Shown: positions 10,613 through 23,636 of the stretch, piece by piece
Position numbering within the stretch: the stretch's first letter is position 1
Layout: each line of letters starts with the position of its first letter
Origin: Deinococcales bacterium
GTDB lineage: Bacteria; Deinococcota; Deinococci; Deinococcales; JAAFIG01
Reading direction: 5' to 3'
Assembly: GCA_031414595.1 (NCBI GenBank)
Contig: JANNVX010000032.1
Location: 1 to 64,000 of the forward strand
Length of the DNA: 64,000 nucleotides
Made by a program: the position numbers and the translations under genes
Notes under the pieces: generated by a model
What the model was told of the DNA's origin: nothing
The model's input: the letters and a program-made list of their open reading frames with translations, nothing else
Databases searched by the model: none

Positions 10613-11044
10613 CTATGGAATCACATATATCCCATCGCTGCGAGCCTCGAGCTTAAAGGCTGGTAATGGCTTGGCGGCTGGACCTTGAATCACTGCACCT
10701 GTTTCTAAGTTAAACAAACTGCCGTGGCAAGGGCAACCAAGTTGATTATTGACGGGTGCGCTGACTCCACAGCCAACATGGGTGCAAACCGTAGAACGAG
10801 CAATTAAATGGATTTCGCCTTGGCTGATGCCAGCCGCTTGTGGTTTGGCAACCCTTGCAATAATGGCTGGATTGGTCTCGAGATTGAGGTTCTTAAAACT
10901 ACCAACACTGGGAAATTCGCTTAAAGTCGCTACTTTTATGCCCGCTTGGGCTAGACTCGCTCCGGGGTTTTCTCGGATTGGCATACAGCCAGTCGCACCA
11001 ATTGCTCCAATTGTAACTAGGGCTTCTCGTCTGGTGATTTTCAT
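10613..11044 (-). CDS. Tat-exported Rieske [2Fe-2S] lipoprotein
   Basis: TRREAL Tat motif, ATGC lipobox, CTHVGC and CPCHGS boxes, GPA..PL. Confidence 0.88.
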   Translation of the reverse strand: MKITRREALVTIGAIGATGCMPIRENPGASLAQAGIKVATLSEFPSVGSFKNLNLETNPAIIARVAKPQAAGISQGEIHLIARSTVCTHVGCGVSAPVNNQLGCPCHGSLFNLETGAVIQGPAAKPLPAFKLEARSDGIYVIP

Positions 11045-11261: not shown

Positions 11262-12713
11262 GTGGGTATGAGTATGCTCGAATCTGTGCGTGATCGTTTG
11301 TTTCCTGATACTCCAGACGGGTCGGCAAAGCTGTGGCTTACGTCGTCTGTGGTCTGGGGGGTTATTGGCATGACCTTTGGTGTGTTCATGGCAATTTTGT
11401 TTGTCTTTCCAGAATTCACCAAAGGTGTGCCGTGGTTGTCGTTTAGTCGGATTCGTCCGTCACACGTCAACACCGTGGTGATGTCTTGGGTTTCGATGGC
11501 AAGCATTGGCTCGATGTTTTATATGTTGCCGCGCTTATTAAAGACTCCACTGGTTTCTGAGCGTCTGGGTACGGCGGTCGGTTGGTCTTGGAACGCCTTT
11601 GCCATCTGTATTCCGCTAACACTCTTAAATGGACTATCGGAAGGGCGCGAGTGGGCGGAGCTTGTTTGGTGGATGGATTGGTGGATGTTGATTAACCTTG
11701 GCTTGGTCGGTTATTTAACCTTTGCGACTGTGGCAAGACGCACCGAACCACAATTGTACGTCTCGGTTTGGTATTGGATGGGTTCGATGGTTGGCATGAC
11801 CTTGGTCTGGATTGTTGGCAACCGAACTTTTGTACCACTAGACGGACTTAACGATGCGATTGCCAATTGGTTCTATGCCCACGATGTATTAGGATTATGG
11901 ATTACCACCATGGGCATTGGAATTATTTACTACCTGTTGCCAAAACTAACGGCTGGCAAGAATGGCGAACCGGGCAACCCTGTCTTTAGCCATAAAATGT
12001 CCTTGATTGGGTTCTGGGGAAATTTTGCCTTCTACACGGGTATTGGGGCGCATCACATTATTCAGTCGCCAGTTCCAGAATGGCTTAAAGCCTTTGCGAT
12101 TGCCTCGAGTGTTTTAATGAGCATTCCAGTCTACTCGGCAAGTGCCAATTTTTTCTTAAGCACCCAAGGGCGTTGGGAGAACTTGGCTTGGAATTTACCG
12201 CTTCGATTTGTAACCTTTGGCTGGATTATGTACGCGCTCTCGAGTTTTCAGGGCAGTTTACAAGCAGTGCGTTCAATCAACTGGTATCAGCACTTCACGG
12301 GAATTGTCAGCGCTCACGCCCATTTAGCCATGCTTGGTGGCTTTAGCGTGGTGTTGTTTGCTAGTATTTATTACTGTATTCCGCGTCTTTACAAAGTCGA
12401 GTGGTACTCTAAAAAACTCGTGGTGGTGCATTTTTGGACGTTTACGGTTTCGTTTGTAATGTTCTTTTTGGTCTGGACAACCATGGGCTTTGTACAAGCC
12501 ACCAGTTGGGTCATGGGGATTAACGTCCAACAAACCGTGCCATTTTTACAACCGTTTACCTTCACCCGCATGATTGCCGCGTTAGCGATGATTTTTTCGG
12601 TTTATATTTTTGCCTATAACGTGCTGCAAACTGTGCGGAGCGCTAAACGTCAAGAGGCTTTTTCCGGAGCCAGAATTCCTTCAGCAGTTGCGCCTGCTGC
12701 GGCGGATGATTAG
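11262..12713 (+). CDS. ccoN: cbb3-type (C-family) heme-copper oxidase subunit I
   Basis: RIRPSH, EGREWAEL, WFYAHD, FYTGIGAHH and HAH: all six His and the helix-VII Tyr; exact start uncertain (11262/11268/11274). Confidence 0.88.
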   Translation: MGMSMLESVRDRLFPDTPDGSAKLWLTSSVVWGVIGMTFGVFMAILFVFPEFTKGVPWLSFSRIRPSHVNTVVMSWVSMASIGSMFYMLPRLLKTPLVSERLGTAVGWSWNAFAICIPLTLLNGLSEGREWAELVWWMDWWMLINLGLVGYLTFATVARRTEPQLYVSVWYWMGSMVGMTLVWIVGNRTFVPLDGLNDAIANWFYAHDVLGLWITTMGIGIIYYLLPKLTAGKNGEPGNPVFSHKMSLIGFWGNFAFYTGIGAHHIIQSPVPEWLKAFAIASSVLMSIPVYSASANFFLSTQGRWENLAWNLPLRFVTFGWIMYALSSFQGSLQAVRSINWYQHFTGIVSAHAHLAMLGGFSVVLFASIYYCIPRLYKVEWYSKKLVVVHFWTFTVSFVMFFLVWTTMGFVQATSWVMGINVQQTVPFLQPFTFTRMIAALAMIFSVYIFAYNVLQTVRSAKRQEAFSGARIPSAVAPAAADD

Positions 12714-12721
12714 GAGTTTTT

Positions 12722-13645
12722 ATGCTGAATCCTAAGAATGCAATTATCGGGCTGATGTTTATGCTCCTTGTGACTGGTGTGACCAGTTTGGTGGTCGTCG
12801 TACCCGCCGCAACTTTTAATCCTGAGCCATCAGTTGGTTTACGCAATTACACCGAAGCCGAGTTGCGTGGGCGCGAAGTTTTTAAGCGCGAGAACTGCTA
12901 TGTTTGCCATAGTCAATTTGTGCGTTTTCAAGACGAAGGTGTTGGTCCAACTTCGCAAGCTGGCGACTTTGCCTACGACAATTCAAACTTGCTCGGCACG
13001 CTGCGAAATGGTCCGGATTTGACCTATGAAGGCGGCTTATACCCGGACGAATGGCACATTGGGCATCTAAAAGCGCCGCGTTCGTACTTACCGGGCAGCT
13101 ATATGCCAAGTTACAGTTACTTAGACTCTAAAGACATCAAAGACCTTGTGGCATTTATCCAAAGCCTTGGGACACGCAATACACGAGCTTGGGACACCAA
13201 AGATGTCAATGTCCCAGAAAAGTACCGCAATCTCGAGTCTCCACTTGGTCAGACGGCAGCAAATATCGGGGCTGGGCGTGGTATTTACAACCAGAATTGC
13301 TCGGCTTGTCACGGCTTTGAGGGTCGGGCAGATGTGCCTTTGGCAAAAATGTTCTATCCAAAACCAGCCGCCAATTTCCATTTGCCTCGTTATAAAGATT
13401 TTACCGACGGACACTGGTTTAATAAAGTCGCAAGGGGCGTACCGGGAACTCGGATGCCGCGCTGGGACCAAATTCTCAATTCTGAGCAAATGTGGTATGT
13501 CGTCACCTACCTAAAGTCTTTAGCAGCAGACCAAGACCTTGTGCCGAAAGCGGGACGGGAAAAGTATTACGACAAGTCAGTTTTGCAACCCGGAACAATC
13601 AAGAAAAAGTACGAAGGCGCACCTAAAGCGGGCGGTGGTCACTAA
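12722..13645 (+). CDS. ccoO: CcoO-like subunit II fused to a second cytochrome c domain
   Basis: CYVCHSQFVR, GTLRNGPDL and PGSYMPSY; second heme motif CSACH and GTRMPRW. Confidence 0.85.
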   Translation: MLNPKNAIIGLMFMLLVTGVTSLVVVVPAATFNPEPSVGLRNYTEAELRGREVFKRENCYVCHSQFVRFQDEGVGPTSQAGDFAYDNSNLLGTLRNGPDLTYEGGLYPDEWHIGHLKAPRSYLPGSYMPSYSYLDSKDIKDLVAFIQSLGTRNTRAWDTKDVNVPEKYRNLESPLGQTAANIGAGRGIYNQNCSACHGFEGRADVPLAKMFYPKPAANFHLPRYKDFTDGHWFNKVARGVPGTRMPRWDQILNSEQMWYVVTYLKSLAADQDLVPKAGREKYYDKSVLQPGTIKKKYEGAPKAGGGH

Positions 13646-13938
13646 TGAAACATTTGGCTCGAGCCTTGGTTCTTGCTTGTTTCTCGAGTTTGGCATTTGC
13701 CGACCATGTGCCGGGCGTTGGCTTAAATTACAGTGGAACTTGGGTGGTGTTGATTGCTGTTGGTGTGATTTTTTCGCTTTTGATTTTGTCTTTGTTGTGG
13801 GCAGTTTTAGATGGGCAATTTCAGAATTCTGAACGGGTTAAATTTGCAGTGGCAGAGGTTAATGAAACCGATTTTATTCCGAGTATTGAGCGTCCGCAAG
13901 GCAATCTGGGTATTCAACGTCCGCAAGGCAAGAGGTGA
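13645..13938 (+). CDS. CcoS/FixS-like cbb3 maturation membrane protein
   Basis: TM helix followed by LWAVLDGQFQN (CcoS-type WA..GQF.D); N-terminal signal-like extension. Confidence 0.6.
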   Translation: MKHLARALVLACFSSLAFADHVPGVGLNYSGTWVVLIAVGVIFSLLILSLLWAVLDGQFQNSERVKFAVAEVNETDFIPSIERPQGNLGIQRPQGKR

Positions 13939-13941
13939 GTT

Positions 13942-14100
13942 ATGGCAGAGCAGAATAAAGACAACCACGACGACAACCATACCCACGAAATTGCTGGTAT
14001 TCAAGTTGGCGAGAAAAACGTGCCAACCTCAGTGATTGCTGTGATTATTTTCATTGTCTTTTTCGCCTTAATTTCTTGGATTGCACCACAGGGGTTTTGA
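13942..14100 (+). CDS. Unannotated 52-aa membrane peptide resembling the CcoP N-terminal anchor
   Basis: MAEQNKDNHDDNHTHEIAGIQVGEKNVPTSVIAVIIFIVFFALISWIAPQGF*; GAGG RBS; TGATG overlap with the next gene. Confidence 0.7.
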   Translation: MAEQNKDNHDDNHTHEIAGIQVGEKNVPTSVIAVIIFIVFFALISWIAPQGF

Positions 14101-15104
14101 TGAAAAAAATCATAACACTCTTTCTAATCTCGAGTTTAGCCGCTTGTAGCGTACCGAGTAACGCCAATAATCCAGCCAAAGAAGCCGCCAAAAAAGGGGT
14201 TTTGTACATTCGTGAAGGCGAAAAACCACTTGAATTAAAAGTCGAAGAAGGCGCATATGACTGGAAGTACCCGAAGTACCCCGAAGATTACAAAGTTGAT
14301 TTGAGTAACCGCGACCAAAACAACCAAACTTATATGTCTGGGCGGGAAATCACTTACCGAGCCAAACCCGATGGTCAACATAAAATGGACACTGCCTTGG
14401 CAGAATTTGGTTCATATGCAGGTCCTTGGCTCGAGGGCGAAGAAGCCTTGCTCTTACCAGTAGCCAACCCCAATGTGGTACTGGGTGACGCTTTAATCAA
14501 GAGTTTGGGGGCAGAAATCAAGCCCGAAATGCTGCCGACACTCGAAGAAACCCCTTTTCAGGCATACTTAAAATTGCGTGAACTTGGTAAGGACACGGAA
14601 GGTCGTCACCGCACTGTAACCATCGAATTAACTGGTGTGACTAACCCTTCGAGTGGCAAGCCCGAAAATGCCGAGTACGATGTTCAACTTGATAAAGAGG
14701 CTTTATGGAGCATTGCTTACGCTTTGTACCGCAAAATTCAACCTGACTTTAAGACCAGAATTCCAACTCGAGAAGACCCGAAAAAACTACTCGATGGCGC
14801 ATTGATTTACGGCAATTGCAACATGTGTCACGGCTCGGATGGTTGGGGCTTGGGCAAGAGTGGTCATAAGTTGCAACCACACCCAGCCAATTTTCATGAG
14901 CCAAGGCGTTTGTTTAATCGTTCTGATGCCAAACTGCGTGAAGTCTTGAAGCACGGAATTTACGGAAGTGCCATGCCACCGTGGGGTGACATACTCTCTG
15001 AAAATGAAATTAACCATGTGGTGGCATATATTCGTTCTTTTTCGTACAGTCTCGAGCCACCAGTCTTGAATGTCAAACCACGTTTTAAGGGAGGTCAGCC
15101 ATGA
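14100..15104 (+). CDS. Monoheme cytochrome c lipoprotein
   Basis: MKKII...LAAC lipobox; CNMCH; GSAMPPW axial Met. Confidence 0.85.
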   Translation: MKKIITLFLISSLAACSVPSNANNPAKEAAKKGVLYIREGEKPLELKVEEGAYDWKYPKYPEDYKVDLSNRDQNNQTYMSGREITYRAKPDGQHKMDTALAEFGSYAGPWLEGEEALLLPVANPNVVLGDALIKSLGAEIKPEMLPTLEETPFQAYLKLRELGKDTEGRHRTVTIELTGVTNPSSGKPENAEYDVQLDKEALWSIAYALYRKIQPDFKTRIPTREDPKKLLDGALIYGNCNMCHGSDGWGLGKSGHKLQPHPANFHEPRRLFNRSDAKLREVLKHGIYGSAMPPWGDILSENEINHVVAYIRSFSYSLEPPVLNVKPRFKGGQP

Positions 15105-15129
15105 ACCTGACACTCAAGGGAGGTCAACC

Positions 15130-15783
15130 ATGATTGACCGCAGAAGTATCGTGAAAGGCATCACTATTTTGCCGCTTTTAGCTGTGGCTGGTGGGATTGG
15201 AACTGCCCTTTTATCGTTTCTTAAACCGACTTGGAAACCACTGGCTTTGCCTGTCACCGAAAAACCCTTAAATGAGGACAAAGTTGTTGGCACACTCGAG
15301 GAATTTGCTAAGGATTACGACTTTAAGGCGTTTGTATTCACGCAAATTACCGTCGAATACACGGCTCGAGGGCGGGCGGCTACCGATGTGCTTGGTTATG
15401 CGGTTCGCATCCCCAATAACAGTTTAGCCGCCGCCGATGTGGGTGTTGGACCCAGTGGCTTACGCCGAGGCTACGGCGAAACTGATTACAATGGTCAAAA
15501 GTACAGCATTGTGGTGGTCTCAAGAATTTGCGCTCATTTGGGTTGTATTTTTGAGTACCATCAACCTGCCGAAGTTTGTTCTGGCTTTAATTACTGTGGC
15601 GGCTCTACTCCAATGTTTTCTTGTCCGTGCCATTTATCGGTCTATGACCCAGCCCAACAGCAAGATGTGGCTGGGGTTGGTAAATTACCCGGCAAGGTTG
15701 TCTCTGGTCCTGCGCCCCGCACTCCATTTCCTTTTGATTTTGAAATTAAAGGCAATGAAATCATCGTCAAAAGCTACGGTTAA
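15130..15783 (+). CDS. Rieske iron-sulfur subunit of a cytochrome bc complex
   Basis: GGAGG RBS, DRRSIVK Tat motif, TM anchor, CAHLGC and CPCHLSVYD, SGPAPR. Confidence 0.9.
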   Translation: MIDRRSIVKGITILPLLAVAGGIGTALLSFLKPTWKPLALPVTEKPLNEDKVVGTLEEFAKDYDFKAFVFTQITVEYTARGRAATDVLGYAVRIPNNSLAAADVGVGPSGLRRGYGETDYNGQKYSIVVVSRICAHLGCIFEYHQPAEVCSGFNYCGGSTPMFSCPCHLSVYDPAQQQDVAGVGKLPGKVVSGPAPRTPFPFDFEIKGNEIIVKSYG

Positions 15784-15795
15784 GGAGGAATACTT

Positions 15796-17103
15796 ATGGC
15801 AGCCCCCGCAGTTCCCGCAAAAAAAGCTGTTCCAAATGTTGGGCAAAAAATCGCCCAATGGTGGACTAAAAGTGCGCGTAATTTAGATTTATTTGACGAA
15901 AACCAAACCGATAAAGTTTTAACCGACCCGTGGTACATGCTTGGTGGGATGGCGTTGTTGTTTTGGTACATCACCATTGTGACAGGCACAGTTCTGATGT
16001 TTTTTTATGTGCCGGACACCTATCAGGCATGGCGCAGTGTGCGTGGAATGTTTGAAGGTGAACAGGGTTTTATTGTTGCCCTGATTCGCAATATGCACAA
16101 ATACGGCGCAGATGCACTGATTATTGCCCTAACAATGCGAATTTACCGCATGTACTTTAGGGGTGAATTTAAGAATTACAATCAGCTTTCCTATATGCTG
16201 ACAATCATTGGCTTACTTTTAGCCATGTTTAGTGGTTTAACGGGTTACTTGCTGATTTGGAATCAACGCGCACTGTGGGCAACCAAGGTTTTTGCGACCT
16301 TCCCAACTTTTGTGGATGATTTTCACAATATCCCGACGATCAAAGTCTTCCTAGCTCCGCTTGCTTATGTTCTCGAGCATACCCTCTCGAGTCTTAAAAT
16401 TGGGGCTTTGACGGCTAATTTTATGCTGGCTGGTCAAAGTATCGGTCCAGCTACTTTGACCCGTTTTTACAGCGCCCATTTTATGCTTTCGATGCTGGCA
16501 ATTTTGGCAATTGAAGCCTACTTTGCCCGTAAGGGACGCGGTGGTAAAATTGGTGAAGCGGCAGCCGGTGGTGGGGCTGGGCGCTTTAAGCGGATTAATT
16601 TACCGTGGTTTGCAGTGGTTTTTTGTTTTGTAATTCTGGTGGTAGTTTCGATTTGGGTTCCAGTGGATACGGGCAGCCCCGCGAACTACAGCGTTACGCC
16701 AAATCCGATTTTGTCCGACTGGTACTTTTTGGGGTTGTACCAAATGATGAAGTGGTGGCAACCCGCCGTGGCAACCTTACAGACCGTTTTGCTTCCCTTG
16801 GTGGCTTTTATTGTCGTCTTTTTAGATTATAGCCCCGAACGCAATCCTTGGAAACGCCCGTTCTGGACAATGGTTGGAATTTACGGATTGGTCTCATGGT
16901 TGGCGTTTAGCATCCTGATTATTCTAAACATTGCCGACATTAAACGCGACCCACCTTATGTTTACTTGGTCAGCATGATTATGCTTGGGGCTGGCGCAAT
17001 TTGGCACTGGGTCTTTATGGCAGGCGAACGCAAAAAACGCTTAAAACTCGAGGCAGAAAAAGCCGCTAAAGCTGCTCTAGCCGCCCCACAAGCGGCTGAT
17101 TAA
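15796..17103 (+). CDS. Cytochrome b (long form) retaining only the heme bL ligands
   Basis: WYMLGG, IRNMH, TGYLL.WNQ, LTRFYSAH and ILSDWYFL (PEWY-like); the +14 His positions are Arg and Tyr. Confidence 0.9.
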   Translation: MAAPAVPAKKAVPNVGQKIAQWWTKSARNLDLFDENQTDKVLTDPWYMLGGMALLFWYITIVTGTVLMFFYVPDTYQAWRSVRGMFEGEQGFIVALIRNMHKYGADALIIALTMRIYRMYFRGEFKNYNQLSYMLTIIGLLLAMFSGLTGYLLIWNQRALWATKVFATFPTFVDDFHNIPTIKVFLAPLAYVLEHTLSSLKIGALTANFMLAGQSIGPATLTRFYSAHFMLSMLAILAIEAYFARKGRGGKIGEAAAGGGAGRFKRINLPWFAVVFCFVILVVVSIWVPVDTGSPANYSVTPNPILSDWYFLGLYQMMKWWQPAVATLQTVLLPLVAFIVVFLDYSPERNPWKRPFWTMVGIYGLVSWLAFSILIILNIADIKRDPPYVYLVSMIMLGAGAIWHWVFMAGERKKRLKLEAEKAAKAALAAPQAAD

Positions 17104-17120: not shown

Positions 17121-17423
17121 ATGAAAGGAAGCACTTGGCTATTTACCCTCGCCTCATTTGTTGGTGGCATCCTTGTCTTTTCAAGTGGCTACAACCAAGT
17201 GTTGCGCTACCTCGAGCAGCCGACTTGGACGGGCTTAGCGATGATTGCTTTTTGGTTGACTTTGCTGCTGTTTTTTGTGGTTACACTGGGGTTTATTATG
17301 TATGCCGTAGACCGCAAAGCTGGCAATGTACGGGTCAAAATCGCGTTATTTGAACGTTTACTGGGTTATTCTAAAGAGGCTGTTTTGCCAGAATCTCGAG
17401 AAAAAAATAAGGAGAATTCATGA
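17121..17423 (+). CDS. Small 2-TM membrane protein in the respiratory operon
   Basis: RBS, hydrophobic helices, ATGA overlap with the next gene. Confidence 0.75.
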   Translation: MKGSTWLFTLASFVGGILVFSSGYNQVLRYLEQPTWTGLAMIAFWLTLLLFFVVTLGFIMYAVDRKAGNVRVKIALFERLLGYSKEAVLPESREKNKENS

Positions 17424-17791
17424 AGACAATCATCGCCATACTGCTGGTTTTAGGGGCGCTCGGACTTGCGCCTTTGACCATTGGGGCGTTCGCTCACGCC
17501 AATCCAGATTTTGGAACAGTTGATAAAACCTTATCTTCCGAAAATCCATACATTGTTCGTGAGGATGGAGCGCCAAAAATTCCAGAGCTTGCGGTGAGCT
17601 TGGTTAAAATTATTCGAGATACCGAAGGGGCGATTTCTGGGGCGTTGCTGCCAAACCTAAAATCCTTCCCATTTGAACGTGGCTTTGCGTATATGGGCTT
17701 AACTGTACTGCTGACTGCGATTGCTTCGGCACTGCTTGCCGATACGCGCAGTCAAACCCTCGTTAAACCTGGCAAGAGGAGGCTGGCATAA
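17420..17791 (+). CDS. Small membrane-anchored protein in the respiratory operon
   Basis: AGGAG RBS, signal peptide plus C-terminal TM, coupled to both neighbours. Confidence 0.75.
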   Translation: MKTIIAILLVLGALGLAPLTIGAFAHANPDFGTVDKTLSSENPYIVREDGAPKIPELAVSLVKIIRDTEGAISGALLPNLKSFPFERGFAYMGLTVLLTAIASALLADTRSQTLVKPGKRRLA

Positions 17792-18978
17792 TGGCAGGTT
17801 ACAGCGCCGACCAAGCCCCAACTTCTCGGGACAAAGGTTTTGATGCAGGTTTAGATGGTATCCATAAAGGTGTTGTTGCCGTAGACAAAGCCATCAATAA
17901 AGTCATCCCCGAAGAGTTCAATCCGTTTTATTACTTGGGCGGCATCACCAATGTACTTTGGGTGCTGCTTGTGCCAACCGGCATTTTCTTGTGGTTTTAC
18001 TATAAACCCACCACCTCAGAAGCCTTCTCGAGTGTTGATTATTTAACCGTACAGGTCTTTTTTGGTGGTGTGATTCGCGGTATTCATCGTTATGCTGGCA
18101 ATGGCATGATTTTATTGGCGGTGCTGCACATGTTGCGTAATTTCTTCACCGACCGTTACCGAGGCTTTAGAGATATCCCTTGGGTTTCTGGAGTTATCCT
18201 CTTGTTTCTAACTGGTTTCATTGGCTTGACTGGTTATTTGTTGGTTTGGGATCAACGCGCCTTGGTCATTACCGAAGCCTTGGTACAGATTTTACGCAGT
18301 TTTGACTTGGTGGTTGCTGGATTTGGCACTTGGTTAGCCAGAGGACTCATCGGTGGTGACGAACCGAATAATTTAACCTTGGCTCGGATGCTGTTTTTGC
18401 ATGTTGGACCTGCAGTGATGGTGTTCTTTTTCTTGTGGGTGCATTATTTGCGTTTGCACCGCCCCAAAATCTGGCCTCCGGCTTTTGTAACGCTACTGAC
18501 GATTGGCGCAGTTTTATTGGTGGCTGGTTTAGCACCACTCGAGAAAACCTTGCCCGCCACACAACCGATTGTTGAAGGACAAGCTGCCATTGTCTATGAC
18601 ATTTTCTATTTGCTGCCTGTATTAGCGCTCTCGAGCATCAGCGCCCCTTGGATTTTGGCGATTCTACTGCTGCTTTTTGCGGTGATGTTTATTCTGCCTT
18701 GGATTCCAGCCAAAAAACACCGTTATGTCAATGTCGCAACCGTCACCCCAGAAAACTGTACCGGTTGTCAACTCTGTGCTATTGACTGCCCGTTTGACGC
18801 AATCGTGATGGTTCCTGGAGCAAATCCAAATCCGCGTTATACCGAGTTAGCCGTGGTCAATGATGACAAATGTGCTGAATGTGGTATTTGCGTTGGTGCT
18901 TGCCCATTCCATGCAATCAATCTCCCGCTCATGGATGAATACACTGTGCGCGATAAGGTGGTGGCGTTACTTAAATGA
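17791..18978 (+). CDS. Cytochrome b with four His ligands fused to a C-terminal 2[4Fe-4S] ferredoxin
   Basis: HRYAGNGMILLAVLH and HVGPAVMVFFFLWVH; CTGCQLCAIDCP and CAECGICVGACP. Confidence 0.9.
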   Translation: MAGYSADQAPTSRDKGFDAGLDGIHKGVVAVDKAINKVIPEEFNPFYYLGGITNVLWVLLVPTGIFLWFYYKPTTSEAFSSVDYLTVQVFFGGVIRGIHRYAGNGMILLAVLHMLRNFFTDRYRGFRDIPWVSGVILLFLTGFIGLTGYLLVWDQRALVITEALVQILRSFDLVVAGFGTWLARGLIGGDEPNNLTLARMLFLHVGPAVMVFFFLWVHYLRLHRPKIWPPAFVTLLTIGAVLLVAGLAPLEKTLPATQPIVEGQAAIVYDIFYLLPVLALSSISAPWILAILLLLFAVMFILPWIPAKKHRYVNVATVTPENCTGCQLCAIDCPFDAIVMVPGANPNPRYTELAVVNDDKCAECGICVGACPFHAINLPLMDEYTVRDKVVALLK

Positions 18979-19463
18979 CACAAGCAACTGAACATATCCA
19001 ACCCCAAGTTTTAGCCTTGAGTGGCAAACCCAAAATTTTTGGCTTTGTCTGCGAATGGAGCTTAGGACGCACCGATTACATCCATGAAGATGGCACGGTC
19101 AAAGGCATGGAGCATATCAAAACCCTTAAAATTCCTTGCTCGGGCTTTGTGAAAACCGAATGGGTCACGGTGGCATTTGAAAATGGCGCTCAAGGTGTGT
19201 TTGTGCTGGGTTGCCCACTCGGAGATTGCCATTTTAACGAAGGTAACTTCATTATTAACGGCAGACTCGAGCAGCACACAGGCAGAATGGTCAACCGTAA
19301 AATCATTGACGAAGCTGGGCGCGTTGCCGAGCTTTACCTTGGTGTGACTGGCAACAACGATTTCTTTACTCAACTCGAAGACTTCACCAAGTACATCAGC
19401 GACATGCCAGCCTTGGTAGTCGCTGCCAAAAAACCTCGGGCTGCGGCAGCCAAAAAGGAGTAA
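18975..19463 (+). CDS. MvhD/FlpD-like [2Fe-2S] protein
   Basis: GFVCEWS, IPCSG and GVFVLGCPLGDCHFNEGN, the MvhD four-Cys signature. Confidence 0.85.
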   Translation: MTQATEHIQPQVLALSGKPKIFGFVCEWSLGRTDYIHEDGTVKGMEHIKTLKIPCSGFVKTEWVTVAFENGAQGVFVLGCPLGDCHFNEGNFIINGRLEQHTGRMVNRKIIDEAGRVAELYLGVTGNNDFFTQLEDFTKYISDMPALVVAAKKPRAAAAKKE

Positions 19464-19752: not shown

Positions 19753-20562
19753 ATGGCAAGAATCCCTTTAACAACACCTGAGCCAGCCGAACCTTCCAAT
19801 GCGATGGATAAGTTGCGTATGAGCCAAATAGAAATTATCTCGATCACCCCATTTATTCGGCTCGAGAAGGGCAATTGGCAAGGCAAGCGTGTGCTGGTCA
19901 AACGCTTAAAAACATCCATGATGAACAACCCTGATGTGCTTGAACGCTTCGAGCGCGAAGCCGATATTCTCGAGCGGCTTGACCACCCGAATATCCCAGC
20001 CTTGATTCACCGCGAATCTGGGGTACTGATGCGCCAATACGTTGAAGGCAACACGCTTTATCATTACCTCAACACCGCCACCATAGACACCGCCTCAACT
20101 TTGCATATTGCAAGGGGTTTATTGTCGGCATTGGTGCATTCGCACGTCCGAGAAATCCTACATTTGGATGTCAAACCCGCCAATGTGCTACTCAGCGCTG
20201 ACCGCCGCGTCCATCTGATTGATTTTGGATGTGCCAAAGACCTGACTTTGGGCAGTATTACCCACCATGAAGCCCGTCTTGGCACACCGCATTACATGGC
20301 ACCCGAGCAATTCAAAGGCATCCGCGATGAACAACGCTCCGACATTTACAGCGTCGGGGCAGTGATGTACGAATGCCTGATGGGACAACCACCACAACGT
20401 GACCCATTTGCATGGTTATCTGGACGTGGTGCATTACCCAAGCAAATGCCTAAGAATAATCAGTTGGCTGATATCATCTGGAAAGCCATTCAACGCAACC
20501 CAGACCACCGATACGACGAAGCCCTTGATATGCTCGAGGCGTTAGAAGCGATTGAAGTTTAG
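19753..20562 (+). CDS. Hanks-type Ser/Thr protein kinase
   Basis: VLVK, HLDVKPAN, DFG, GTPHYMAPE and SDIYS; start may be downstream. Confidence 0.88.
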   Translation: MARIPLTTPEPAEPSNAMDKLRMSQIEIISITPFIRLEKGNWQGKRVLVKRLKTSMMNNPDVLERFEREADILERLDHPNIPALIHRESGVLMRQYVEGNTLYHYLNTATIDTASTLHIARGLLSALVHSHVREILHLDVKPANVLLSADRRVHLIDFGCAKDLTLGSITHHEARLGTPHYMAPEQFKGIRDEQRSDIYSVGAVMYECLMGQPPQRDPFAWLSGRGALPKQMPKNNQLADIIWKAIQRNPDHRYDEALDMLEALEAIEV

Positions 20563-20641
20563 GAGAGCTATGGGCTTTGAGCTATGGGCTTTGAGGGTTT
20601 ACTAGCCGATTGTCTCGAGAAACCGATTCTTAGAGGAAAAA

Positions 20642-21556
20642 ATGAAACGATTATTGACTTTCTTGGGTGTGTTTCTATTTGGCTTGGCAATTTCTCAAAG
20701 TGGCTCTCCTCTGCCCGCCAGTGCAACCCTCATCTCGAGCAAAATCATCAACGGAATTACCGAACAAGACCTGTGGTATAAAAGCGACAATTTACGAATT
20801 CGCGGGCGGTTGTTTTTGCCAAGTGGCACGGCTCGAGTGGCTGGGGTTGTCTACAATCACGGCGGGGTTACTGGTTTATCTAACCTTGCGGCAACACGCT
20901 GCCGCGAACTGGCACAGGCTGGCTTGGCGGTCTTTGCCTCGAGCTACCGAGGTGAGGATGGCTCGGATGGCAAAGTAGAAGTCGCCAAAGGCGAAATAGA
21001 CGATGTTCTGGCTGGCTATAACTGGTTTAAGACCCACCCTCGAGTGGATGCAAAGCGCATTGCCCAATTTGGCACAAGCCACGGGGCATTGATCGGGCTT
21101 TTTAGCAGCGCAAGGGACTCGAGTTTTCGCAGTTTGGTCTTTGCTTACGGCGTAGCCGATATTGTCGCATGGTACGAGCATTTGGTACGCACCAAGCAAC
21201 TGACAAACGACCAATTGACCAAGGACACTTACGGTAACGGTCCCGCAGACCGCCCCGAAAGTTTTGCGGTTCGGATGGGTTTGAGCGCCGTCCCAAAAAT
21301 CCCTGATGCCATGCCTGTGCTGATTATTCAGGGTGGAAAAGATGTGATTGTGCCGCTTGAACAAGCCAAAGTCTTACACAGCAGCCTCAAGAAAAACGGC
21401 AAACAAAGCCAATTGAACGTTTATCCAAATAGCGAACATGGTTTTGTGATTACCCAAGAAGCGGCTGCCAAAAAAAGTAAGGTGTCTGGTCTCGAGGCTA
21501 GTCTTGCATGGTCAGACATAAAAAAATTCTTACTCGAGACAACCAAAATCAGGTAA
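20642..21556 (+). CDS. Secreted alpha/beta hydrolase (S9 peptidase-like)
   Basis: Signal peptide, HGG, GTSHG nucleophile elbow, GGKD, HGF. Confidence 0.85.
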   Translation: MKRLLTFLGVFLFGLAISQSGSPLPASATLISSKIINGITEQDLWYKSDNLRIRGRLFLPSGTARVAGVVYNHGGVTGLSNLAATRCRELAQAGLAVFASSYRGEDGSDGKVEVAKGEIDDVLAGYNWFKTHPRVDAKRIAQFGTSHGALIGLFSSARDSSFRSLVFAYGVADIVAWYEHLVRTKQLTNDQLTKDTYGNGPADRPESFAVRMGLSAVPKIPDAMPVLIIQGGKDVIVPLEQAKVLHSSLKKNGKQSQLNVYPNSEHGFVITQEAAAKKSKVSGLEASLAWSDIKKFLLETTKIR

Positions 21557-21565
21557 ACTCGAGCC

Positions 21566-22072
21566 ATGTTATTTGCTTTGGTTGCCCTCATTATTGTGCA
21601 GCGCTTACTTGAACTGGGTCATGCTAAGCGCAACTTGGCTTGGGTAATGGCAAATGGTGGCAAAGAATACGCAGCCGAACATTACCCTTTTATGGTTGCC
21701 TTGCACTCGAGTTGGATTGTGGCACTGCTGCTTGAGGGATGGCTACGCGGCGCGGCTCTTTCGAGTTTATGGTGGTTGTGGCTTGGGCTTTTTTTAGTCG
21801 CTCAGGTCTTACGCTACATCGTCATCTCGAGCCTAGGTAAACTCTGGAATACCCGAATTATTATTGTGCCAAATGCAAAATTGGTACGCTCTGGGTTATA
21901 CAGCTTTGTTAAACACCCCAATTATATGATTGTTGCCCTCGAGTTATTGGTCACACCACTGATTTTTGATGCTTGGATTACAGCGATTGTTTTTAGTGTC
22001 CTGAATGCTGTTTTATTGCTAGGTTTTCGGATTCCTGCCGAAGAACGCGCCCTCGAGACATTAAAGGGTTAA
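21566..22072 (+). CDS. Isoprenylcysteine carboxyl methyltransferase family (BpsB/SrsB-like)
   Basis: QRL.EL..A.RN, LG..WNTRII, HPNY, RIPAEE. Confidence 0.85.
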   Translation: MLFALVALIIVQRLLELGHAKRNLAWVMANGGKEYAAEHYPFMVALHSSWIVALLLEGWLRGAALSSLWWLWLGLFLVAQVLRYIVISSLGKLWNTRIIIVPNAKLVRSGLYSFVKHPNYMIVALELLVTPLIFDAWITAIVFSVLNAVLLLGFRIPAEERALETLKG

Positions 22073-22091
22073 TGTAGCTTATAATGCCAGT

Positions 22092-23636
22092 ATGACGATT
22101 CAATTGACCAACCCTGTACCCGAAGTAGCAATGCCACTTTTTTCGCAAGCTGCCTTAGAATTTGTGACTCAACTCGAGCAGAAATTTGCAGCGCGGCGCT
22201 TGGAGTTACTGACCGCTCGAGCCGAACGCGCCAAGCGCCTAAAAAACGGCGAATTACCGCATTTTTTGCCTGAAACAAGCAATATCAGGGAATCTGAATG
22301 GACGGTTGCACCATTGCCACAAGACCTACAAGACCGCCGTACCGAAATAACCGGACCCGTAGACCGAAAAATGGTGATTAACGCCCTCAATTCTGGGGCA
22401 AAGGTTTTTATGGCAGATTTTGAAGATGCCAATAGTCCAACATGGTCAAACACCACGCTAGGACAAGTGAATTTGCTTGATGCCAATAAACGCATTATTT
22501 CACTCGAGCAGGGCGAAAAAACCTATGTGTTAAACCAAACCGTTGCGACTCTCAAAGTTCGTCCGCGTGGTTGGCATCTCGAGGAACGCCATGCGGTCTT
22601 GGATGGCAAGGCTGTGTCGGCTTCGCTGTTTGATTTTGGGATTTACTTTTTTAACAATGTTGATGTGCTGCTTGGACGTGGTTCAGCCCCTTATTTTTAC
22701 CTGCCTAAACTTGAATCACATCTCGAGGCAAGATTATGGAACGATGTTTTTGTCTTTGCCCAAGAATACCTTGGTGTCCCACAAGGCACGATTCGCGCCA
22801 CAGTTTTAATCGAAACAATCCTCGCCTCGTTTGAAATGCACGAGATTTTGTATGAACTGCGCCACCACTCGAGTGGCTTAAATTGCGGACGTTGGGATTA
22901 TATTTTTAGTTTTATTAAAAAACTCGGTCACGACCCTAGATTTGTTCTGCCAGACCGTGCCAAAGTGACGATGGCAACCCAGATGATGCGCTCCTACTCA
23001 AAACTGGCGATACAAACCTGCCACAAGCGCAACGCCCCAGCCATCGGCGGGATGAGTGCTTTTATTCCCGTTAAAAACGATGAGGCTGCCAATGCAAAGG
23101 CATTTGAACAAGTTCGGCTTGATAAAGAACGTGAAGCTGGCGATGGTCATGACGGCACTTGGGTGGCGCACCCCGGGCTTGTCCCTGTGGCACTCGAGGT
23201 CTTTAACCGACTGATGCCGACCCCCAATCAAATCGGCAAAATTCCAGAAGGGGCTGTTTTTGAATCAGACCTTTTAATTGTTCCGACCGATGGTGTGACC
23301 CGAACTGGACTCGAGCTAAATGTTTCTGTGGCACTCCAATACTTAGAAGCATGGTTACGCGGCAGTGGGGCAGTGCCAATCAATAATTTAATGGAAGATG
23401 CGGCTACCGCCGAAATCTCGAGGGCGCAACTCTGGCAATGGGTGCATCACAAAGTTGAACTCGAGGACAGCACAATTGTCACCCGCGACTTGGTACTACA
23501 AACCATTCAAAAGTACCTTGGACAGCTAAAAGCAGAAGGCAAACGCTTTGAAGAAGCCGCTAAACTCTTAATCAACACCACCAAAGAACCATTTGCCGAA
23601 TTCTTAACCACCTCGGCGTACCAAATTCTTGAGTAA
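22092..23636 (+). CDS. aceB: Malate synthase A
   Basis: EITGP.DRKM.INALNSGA, RPRGWH, LNCGRWDYIFS, LMEDAATAEISR. Confidence 0.95.
   Translation: MTIQLTNPVPEVAMPLFSQAALEFVTQLEQKFAARRLELLTARAERAKRLKNGELPHFLPETSNIRESEWTVAPLPQDLQDRRTEITGPVDRKMVINALNSGAKVFMADFEDANSPTWSNTTLGQVNLLDANKRIISLEQGEKTYVLNQTVATLKVRPRGWHLEERHAVLDGKAVSASLFDFGIYFFNNVDVLLGRGSAPYFYLPKLESHLEARLWNDVFVFAQEYLGVPQGTIRATVLIETILASFEMHEILYELRHHSSGLNCGRWDYIFSFIKKLGHDPRFVLPDRAKVTMATQMMRSYSKLAIQTCHKRNAPAIGGMSAFIPVKNDEAANAKAFEQVRLDKEREAGDGHDGTWVAHPGLVPVALEVFNRLMPTPNQIGKIPEGAVFESDLLIVPTDGVTRTGLELNVSVALQYLEAWLRGSGAVPINNLMEDAATAEISRAQLWQWVHHKVELEDSTIVTRDLVLQTIQKYLGQLKAEGKRFEEAAKLLINTTKEPFAEFLTTSAYQILE

Follow-up and report, generated by a model that had tools for sequence, protein, structure and literature searches.

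The cytochromes b of the bc1 and b6f complexes are recognised by an eight-helix fold, a PEWY-type loop at the quinol-oxidising (Qo) site and four axial histidines, and surveys of cytochrome b evolution have treated these four haem ligands as invariable. In Science in 2017, Soo et al. reportedly described the 'complex III-IV operon' of aerobic Melainabacteria. The available sections of two texts cite this operon (bioRxiv 10.1101/531145) and discuss it as b6f, in arguments on the evolution of respiration and photosynthesis (PMC6349859). Kao and Hunte (2014), in the part of their survey accessible as PMC4122944, discarded all sequences without four His, so that the family described here could not have been found by them; the same text mentions a Pyrobaculum cytochrome b without the second His ligand of haem bH, and a 'PDWF-FeS clade' that combines cytochrome b with 4Fe-4S and MvhD and has no Rieske protein (Magnetospirillum magneticum AMB-1, Turneriella parva). 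Cytochrome b::FeS proteins also stand beside eNOR in Ferrigenium, according to the accessible part of a preprint (10.64898/2026.01.22.701106). For bc1, the portion of PMC7908018 at hand reports that electrons pass between the bL haems of the two monomers on the catalytic time scale, an observation made on cross-inactivated enzymes, and states that what this bL-bL bridge means physiologically is unclear. Here, we describe a cytochrome b, termed b1, encoded in a stretch of 64,000 nucleotides from a Deinococcales bacterium (the window: positions 1 to 64,000 of contig JANNVX010000032.1, assembly GCA_031414595.1). It is a full-length cytochrome b with the haem bL ligands and a Qo loop and with no bH ligands, and it shares its operon with a second cytochrome b, termed b2, that is fused to an iron-sulfur domain.

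Translation of b1 gave an intact frame of 435 amino acids (aa). A preliminary description of the window, made from its letters, had placed in helix B a histidine with Arg 14 residues further on, in helix D a histidine followed by Tyr at +14 and Phe at +15, and in the ef loop a PEWY-like ILSDWYFL. All three readings were borne out, the residues being H101 and R115; H228, Y242 (codon 16519-21) and F243; and residues 305-312. In a HMMER alignment to the solved cytochrome b6 2zt9_A, R115 aligned with the second helix-B histidine of b6, which we take to be the bn/bH ligand. Both cytochrome b models of Pfam matched b1 above their cut-offs (PF00033, 74.3 bits; PF00032, 23.4 bits, cut-off 20.7). An AlphaFold2 model built from a 21-row alignment (predicted local distance difference test score, pLDDT, 80.4; predicted template-modelling score, pTM, 0.80) matched full-length bc1 cytochromes b in Foldseek with probability 1.0 and query template-modelling scores (TMq) of 0.53-0.61. 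The best fold match was 7jrg_C, and the best sequence match among solved structures was cytochrome b6, for example 2zt9_A; none of the solved structures among the sequence matches has the ligand pattern of b1. The domains, the eight-helix fold and the Qo motif of a bc1/b6f cytochrome b are thus present, with a bc-type Rieske protein and a c-type cytochrome encoded next to them. Of the four axial histidines, just H101 and H228 are found, and this holds clade-wide.

To place b1 among its relatives, we scored 8000 candidates from a collection of 5.8 billion proteins, obtained 805 relatives at E <= 0.001, and aligned the best 120 (40-92% identity). Among the query and these 120, position 115 is Arg in 103 and Lys in 17, with one fragment and zero His, and position 242 is Tyr in 110, Arg in 8, His in 2 and Trp in 1. 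The bL positions are His in 120 (101, with one fragment) and in 121 (228), and both E240 and S307-D308-W309-Y310 are present in 121/121. When 185,579 genomes, each representing one species, were searched in a pattern scan, 525 matches were obtained, 506 of them confirmed relatives; the best 80 loci were kept and, with the window, make up the 81 genome copies referred to below. In these copies, the residue at position 115 (R 70, K 11) is written with eight different codons, position 242 is Tyr in 61, Arg in 19 and His in one, and R118 is invariant (81/81). The loss of the bH ligands is far beyond chance.

The ratio of nonsynonymous to synonymous substitution rates (dN/dS) of b1, estimated by the Nei-Gojobori method, was 0.014-0.084 against Deinococcales orthologues (7 of the 11 comparisons had unsaturated dS). 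b1 is under strong purifying selection. The preliminary description had judged the two exchanges, H to R and H to Y, to be selected and not decayed, and had proposed an alignment of orthologues as a check on their conservation. It was right on this point: besides the low dN/dS, the pattern recurs in the 120 relatives and the 81 copies, persists down to 40% identity across at least six phyla, and falls behind one supported split in the tree described next.

An exhaustive phmmer search of 1.84 billion cluster representatives returned 2353 matches at E <= 0.001 and just 20 at E <= 1e-30, with a score gap past ~220 bits. We aligned 136 representatives of at least 280 residues, adding the b2 of the window as a 137th row that is excluded from the counts. 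Four His are present in 109 representatives, whereas 21 are bH-less, with the pattern H-R/K ... H-E-x-Y/H/R/F. Position 115 is His in all 109 four-His representatives, and E240 occurs in none of them (0/109). A divergent subclade within the 21 (P0136, P0138, P0142) reads ILPDWYFL in the Qo loop. The predicted bH-less cytochromes b are a large, sharply bounded clade. In a quick, unrooted IQ-TREE analysis of 58 rows hand-picked from the phmmer matches, a branch with a Shimodaira-Hasegawa-like approximate likelihood-ratio test (SH-aLRT) value of 97 has 18/18 bH-less representatives, and P0233 (pattern HR..H..R) with them, on the same side. Within the four-His side, seven b2 sequences group as a separate clade (SH-aLRT 100). 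A single loss of the bH ligands would be sufficient to explain this tree, and a recent duplication giving b1 and b2 is ruled out by their separate clades.

One subclade departs from the pattern in helix D. In the copy from a Symbiobacterium thermophilum metagenome-assembled genome (MAG; locus L030) and in P0046, P0123, P0126, P0127 and P0131, the helix-D His is restored or kept (HR..H..EH), and the Qo loop reads IYSDWYFL or IFSDWYFL. This subclade would constitute a natural test of whether a single His suffices for holding the haem.

The former bH pocket was compared column by column between the 21 bH-less and the 109 four-His representatives. The strongest clade-specific residues in the bH-less set were R266, E240, R115, D34, E35, S146, and D31. 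The helix-C Gly, which presumably packs against haem bH, is present in 109/109 four-His representatives and in 14/121 b1 family members, which otherwise have A, S or T at this position. Likewise, the helix-D Pro232 of 108/109 four-His representatives is replaced by S or T. Additionally, on the cytoplasmic half of the four-helix bundle, smaller residues have given way to Y54, W57, Y117 and M119, and the N-terminal stretch, which is basic in ordinary cytochromes b, is acidic in the bH-less set (D31, D34, E35). Because the bH-packing residues are replaced, a second haem is unlikely in b1. These substitutions, and the varying residue at position 242, argue that side chains occupy the bH pocket in place of a haem.

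The second cytochrome b of the operon, b2, has cytochrome b6 as its best solved match (4.8e-33). Its ligand histidines are conserved (H99 and H113 in 72/72; H204 and H218 in 69/69 covering rows), as are its eight cluster cysteines (67/67). The ef loop reads VYDIFYLL, with Asp270 kept in 65/72 and Tyr273 in 57/72. With regard to quinone reduction next to haem bH, the residue five places past the second helix-D His differs between copies (the commonest three among 72 being T in 25, H in 17 and K in 8). The preliminary description had attributed to b2 four His and no PEWY-like motif; the histidines are all there, and the statement on the motif is correct only in part, given the Asp and Tyr retained in the ef loop. 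The iron-sulfur domain of b2 is predicted to be cytoplasmic because there is no export signal and a positive-inside PAKKHRY stretch precedes the domain. In the MvhD-like protein encoded next, C26, C55, C80 and C85 are conserved in 62/62, and by analogy this protein would be a [2Fe-2S] carrier.

b1 and b2 travel together. Of the 80 related loci, 72 encode b2 and six stop at a contig end before reaching it; for the remaining two, the long loci L071 and L072, b2 is encoded at another place in the genome (41-43% identity over residues 27-386). Counting both the locus and the rest of the genome, b2 accompanies b1 in 74/74 judgeable cases. The pairing also recurs in a sister clade. A metagenome scan with P0138 found five loci, three of them long (L090-L092), which share the order Rieske, cytochrome b::2x[4Fe-4S] (331 aa, four His), FlpD, Fer4_8, Fer4_22, NAD_binding_1+DHODB_Fe-S_bind, and a bH-less cytochrome b of 384 aa (H..R / H..E.F) with a PDWY loop (ILPDWYFL). 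No oxidase or cytochrome c was detected in L090-L092 with the queries used. The flavin/NAD(P)-binding iron-sulfur subunit is present only in L090-L092 and absent from the window operon and the 80 related loci. A core of Rieske protein, putative single-haem b, di-haem b::FeS and MvhD survives these changes of gene order and partners. This sister-clade pairing is the best evidence for b1 and b2 working together, and the gene content suggests that the cytoplasmic clusters link the complex to a soluble redox couple.

Complex prediction, run for one b1:b2 pairing, gave a score of 0.54 (runs 0.62, 0.50, 0.54), against 0.00 for the best of three controls, which amounts to weak support. At least 83% of contacts are shared between the runs, and the partner pLDDT is at least 75. 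The mark applied to such scores is reached by 116/157 solved complexes and 2/215 mismatched pairs; scores <=0.60 above the mark were obtained for just 18/157 solved complexes and for both passing mismatches. The pairwise identity matrices of b1 and b2 are correlated across 67 loci (r = 0.97, or 0.69 for distant pairs).

From established knowledge of bc1, b1 alone would be unable to run a Q cycle. On this ground, the preliminary description had suggested that the bL electron crosses the dimer interface to b2 in an asymmetric heterodimer. A b1:b2 heterodimer appears plausible, though unproven, in view of the 74/74 co-occurrence, the sister-clade pairing, the weak complex score and the known bL-bL transfer in bc1. 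The earlier idea was reasonable, but it overlooked the fusion of b2 to 2x[4Fe-4S] and the MvhD-like protein that follows. Because of these two features, exit or entry through iron-sulfur clusters is a likelier fate of the electron than a plain quinone-reducing (Qi) site on b2.

We propose that b1 is the quinol-oxidising single-haem half of a two-cytochrome-b Rieske complex co-encoded with a cbb3 oxidase, a scheme that, taken as a whole, we hold to be somewhat probable on balance. Quinol would be oxidised at the b1 Qo site, with the first electron passing from the Rieske protein to cytochrome c, the cbb3 oxidase and O2, and the second reducing haem bL of b1. With no bH below, the bL electron would cross the dimer interface to the bL of b2, as over the bL-bL bridge of bc1, and would then move through the bH of b2 and the 2x[4Fe-4S] domain to the MvhD cluster on the cytoplasmic side. 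The last acceptor might be a quinone at the cytoplasmic side, which would close a Q cycle, or a soluble acceptor; the NAD(P)-type flavo-iron-sulfur module of the sister clade points to a nicotinamide or ferredoxin couple. A bolder version is possible but doubtful. Here, the complex would be a natural, obligately asymmetric heterodimer in which deletion of bH forces the low-potential electrons over the bL-bL bridge into b2 and out to the cytoplasmic clusters. Quinol oxidation pulled by O2 would then drive the reduction of a cytoplasmic acceptor (ferredoxin, NAD(P)+ or similar), a quinone-based bifurcation that exits into the cell instead of a Q cycle.

Several points weigh against the proposed scheme. 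The weak b1:b2 score could reflect a memory of solved cytochrome b homodimers, and the correlation between the identity matrices is expected of any operon mates. With its partly conserved ef-loop Asp and Tyr, b2 may have a separate site for quinone. The potentials of ferredoxin-type clusters usually lie below those of b haems, and an electron travelling inwards from the outer side has to move against the membrane potential; because both oppose it, delivery to a low-potential acceptor would be energetically demanding. Furthermore, all-against-all clustering of the open reading frames (ORFs) of the 81 loci revealed no conserved cytoplasmic partner such as HdrA and no cytoplasmic partner for MvhD in the window clade, and a homologue of the sister-clade Fer4_22 protein was not found in the organism's genome with that query.

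The same genes could be divided between two enzymes. A b1 homodimer might serve as a Qo-only quinol:cytochrome c reductase with no Q cycle, its bL being a dead end or safety store and both electrons leaving via the Rieske protein, while b2::FeS and MvhD form a separate co-transcribed enzyme, for example a redox loop between quinol and a cytoplasmic couple. Cytochromes b::FeS do exist without a Rieske protein or b1, as reported in the accessible parts of PMC4122944 for the 'PDWF-FeS clade' with MvhD (Magnetospirillum, Turneriella) and of 10.64898/2026.01.22.701106 for the protein adjoining eNOR in Ferrigenium. The retained Asp (65/72) and Tyr (57/72) of the b2 ef loop would suit such an enzyme, and b2 is unlinked from b1 in 2/80 loci. 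Nevertheless, b2 and MvhD occur with b1 in every judgeable genome, and in the sister clade too, in another gene order. A bL haem with no outlet would, on general grounds, favour short circuits and superoxide, which would be odd for an only complex III, and the b1:b2 prediction passed its controls, if weakly. We consider a separate b1 homodimer unlikely. The b1:b2 complex could instead work from the inside outwards, with a cytoplasmic reductant feeding MvhD, the [4Fe-4S] clusters, the b2 haems and finally the bL/Qo site of b1, as a respiratory input comparable to ferredoxin-driven cyclic flow into b6f. The membrane potential and the likely low potentials of ferredoxin-type clusters would in general favour this direction, and the NAD(P)-binding flavo-iron-sulfur module of the sister clade could act as a dehydrogenase. 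The sequence fixes no direction. Quinol oxidation is what a Qo site accompanied by a Rieske protein and a cbb3 oxidase is made for, and reduced bL would be expected to block the bifurcated reaction. We consider inward-to-outward flow still less likely than the homodimer.

A different kind of alternative would leave b1 able to carry electrons across the membrane by itself, through a second cofactor in the former bH pocket, either a haem held via Lys/Arg and Tyr/His or a quinone. R118, which we take to be the equivalent of the Arg that binds the bH propionate in bc1, is invariant, as is G50 on helix A, and the head group of a quinone could be bound by R115, E240 and Y242, which make up a polar triad. 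However, a conserved axial ligand would not be expected to change as these positions do (R or K at 115; Y, R, H, W or F at 242); the helix-C Gly is replaced in 107/121, and bulkier residues line the pocket. A second cofactor in b1 is thus very improbable. The chance that b1 is a decaying duplicate or an assembly artefact is negligible, as this is ruled out by the intact 435-codon frame, the dN/dS of 0.014-0.084 and the 506 relatives, and the genome has just one cytochrome b gene besides b1.

b1 is the sixth of ten co-directional, nearly gap-free genes, and no NCBIfam model reached its cut-off for any of the ten proteins. The features of the operon and of its sister-clade counterpart are listed in Table 1.

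Table 1. Features of b1, of the other genes of its operon in the window, and of the sister-clade operon
Feature	Position	Strand	Basis
b1, full-length cytochrome b with bL ligands and Qo loop, no bH ligands	15796..17103	+	Translation, Pfam, alignments, AlphaFold2 model
H101, helix B, haem bL ligand	16096..16098	+	His in 81/81 genome copies
R115, replaces helix-B bH histidine	16138..16140	+	R 70, K 11 of 81 copies
H228, helix D, haem bL ligand	16477..16479	+	His in 81/81 genome copies
E240-A241-Y242; clade-specific Glu, Tyr replacing helix-D bH histidine	16513..16521	+	E240 in 81/81
ILSDWYFL, Qo (PEWY-type) motif as SDWY, residues 305-312	16708..16731	+	D308, W309, Y310 in 81/81
CcoN-like subunit I, cbb3-type (C-family) haem-copper oxidase	11262..12713	+	PF00115 4.1e-68
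CcoO (FixO) fused to class I cytochrome c domain	12722..13645	+	PF02433 7.8e-35, PF00034/PF13442
Small membrane protein, Deinococcales loci only	13645..13938	+	No Pfam/NCBIfam match; cluster of 16 Deinococcales loci
Mono-haem cytochrome c, probably lipoprotein	14076..15104	+	PF13442/PF00034; CxxCH in 69/69 orthologues, lipobox Cys in 54/69
Rieske [2Fe-2S] protein, bc type, CAHLGC...CPCHLSVYD	15070..15783	+	Twin-arginine translocation (Tat) motif DRRSIVKG
Small membrane protein A (~100 aa), subunit candidate	17121..17423	+	Iterated hidden Markov model: between b1 and b2 in 49/72 loci, across phyla
Small membrane protein B (~105-125 aa), subunit candidate	17420..17791	+	Iterated hidden Markov model: 47/72 loci
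b2, b6-like di-haem cytochrome b (helices A-F) fused to cytoplasmic 2x[4Fe-4S]	17791..18978	+	PF00033 1.9e-28, Fer4 families
MvhD/FlpD-like protein, cytoplasmic	18975..19463	+	PF02662 2.6e-20
Sister-clade operon	L090:1367-7333, L091:3189-9155, L092:272-6247		Adjoins dnaN, recF, dciA

The two cbb3 genes scored above the Pfam cut-offs (PF00115, PF02433) and below those of the equivalog models: the CcoN-like protein reached 244.8 bits with TIGR00780 ccoN (cut-off 583), and CcoO reached 116.6 with TIGR00781 (cut-off 200.65) and stayed below the cut-off of NF011054. The true start of the cytochrome c gene is probably the ATG of M9 at ~14100, which gives MKKIITLF...LAAC, and not the TTG at 14076; that of the Rieske gene is probably M21 at ~15130, which gives the Tat motif DRRSIVKG, and not the ATG at 15070. 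With these later starts, the apparent 35-base overlap of the two genes disappears. Among the Rieske orthologues, the cluster ligands and disulfide cysteines are conserved in 77-78 of 79, S190 in 78/79 (the other row is a gap), and Y192 in 63/79. Proteins A and B, which have no Pfam or NCBIfam family, are likely extra subunits; L027, L049, L065 and L067 have a single ORF of 204-208 aa in their place, which may be a fused form of A and B.

Just upstream of the operon, and divergent from it, lies a gene for a second Rieske protein of 143 aa (10613-11044, minus strand), with a TRREAL Tat motif, the lipobox ATGC and CTHVGC...CPCHGS. In clustering it joined the operon Rieske family, together with a few minus-strand copies from related loci. 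Downstream, positions 19753-23636 (plus strand) encode seemingly unrelated proteins: a Ser/Thr protein kinase, an S9/dienelactone-hydrolase-type esterase, an ICMT-family methyltransferase, and malate synthase.

The genome of the organism (4.49 Mb, 94% complete) contains b1 and b2 as its only cytochrome b genes, a single PF00115 (COX1) match and a single PF02662 match; cytochrome bd was not found in this 94% complete assembly. Judging from these findings, the organism has no route from quinol to oxygen other than the operon, which also encodes its only complex III. Searches with the window proteins by tblastn and phmmer recovered the gene order across the related loci, with the Rieske gene in 79/80, COX1 in 64/80 and FlpD in 62/80, the shortfalls being mostly due to contig ends. 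When all ORFs of the 81 loci were clustered, only the cytochrome b, Rieske, cytochrome c, COX1 and FlpD families were common across phyla. The best 80 loci come from Deinococcales/Deinococcota (18), Melainabacteria sensu lato (36; Vampirovibrionales, Obscuribacterales and others, a few labelled 'cyanobacterium' or Oculatellaceae), Holophagaceae (14), Solibacteraceae (5), Armatimonadota (3), one MAG each of Symbiobacterium thermophilum, Anaerolineae and Proteobacteria, and one other. Other Deinococcota families, sampled with 120 genomes, yielded no b1 orthologue; the best matches there had 24-33% identity and partial coverage. The operon looks lineage-specific or transferred, and it seems to have replaced, or come instead of, the usual complex III in this Deinococcales lineage.

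The b1 system is a widespread but unstudied variant of a textbook respiratory enzyme. With the cytochromes b of bc1 and b6f, b1 shares the eight-helix fold, the bL His pair, a PEWY-type loop and the adjacent bc-type Rieske and cytochrome c genes. It differs from them in the R/K and Y/R/H found in place of the bH ligands, in the replaced helix-C Gly and helix-D Pro, in the invariant Glu240, in the acidic N-terminal patch, and in having SDWY instead of PEWY/PDWY. A large bacterial clade thus breaks the four-histidine rule under strong selection. The anammox Rieske/cytochrome b complexes R/b-2 and R/b-3 of Kuenenia contain an NAD(P) oxidoreductase subunit. A low-potential Qo branch feeding a cytoplasmic NAD(P)-linked module would be common to these complexes and to the system described here, and the sister clade has such a module; in contrast, the window operon encodes no flavoprotein and no flavin/NAD(P) subunit. 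We know of no report that anammox cytochromes b lack bH.

The Pyrobaculum cytochrome b resembles b1 in its natural loss of haem bH, as deduced from the ligands. As presented in the accessible text (PMC4122944), however, that case is archaeal and confined to one genus, with one ligand reported lost and no paired cytochrome b::FeS described. With the 'PDWF-FeS clade', b2 shares its domain set: a di-haem cytochrome b with four His, eight Cys for 2x[4Fe-4S], and an adjacent MvhD/FlpD gene. It differs in its loop (VYDIFY instead of PDWF) and in the Rieske gene, which is found in 79/80 of the b1 loci and in none of that clade; moreover, MvhD is a separate gene here, and b2 is always partnered with a Rieske protein and the predicted single-haem b1.

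The melainabacterial complex III-IV operon belongs to the same family, with a C-family oxidase, a Rieske protein and two cytochromes b, and Vampirovibrio chlorellavorus NCIMB 11383 (L054) has the HR..H..EY pattern. The available sections of the published accounts annotate this operon as b6f/complex III and are silent on the missing haem ligands and the iron-sulfur arm; the copy in the window comes from a Deinococcales MAG. A literature search covering main texts returned no report of bH-ligand loss in the b1 family. Within this search, the operon is already in print and the haem loss was not found reported. In aerobic Melainabacteria, a non-photosynthetic sister group of Cyanobacteria, the complex III encoded together with the oxidase is that of the b1 family, and these genes have been read as b6f. 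The system would also permit testing the long-proposed Qo-driven reduction of cytoplasmic acceptors in an aerobic organism.

The closest functional precedent for the proposed route is found in cross-inactivated bc1 enzymes, which are engineered homodimers. In these, the Qo electron reaches the bH of the other monomer over the bL-bL bridge (PMC7908018, in the portion at hand), which is the route proposed here for b1:b2. The asymmetry of b1:b2, unlike theirs, would be natural, obligatory and based on two genes, and the complex, if the heterodimer is real, would be the first enzyme in nature to rely on the bL-bL bridge.

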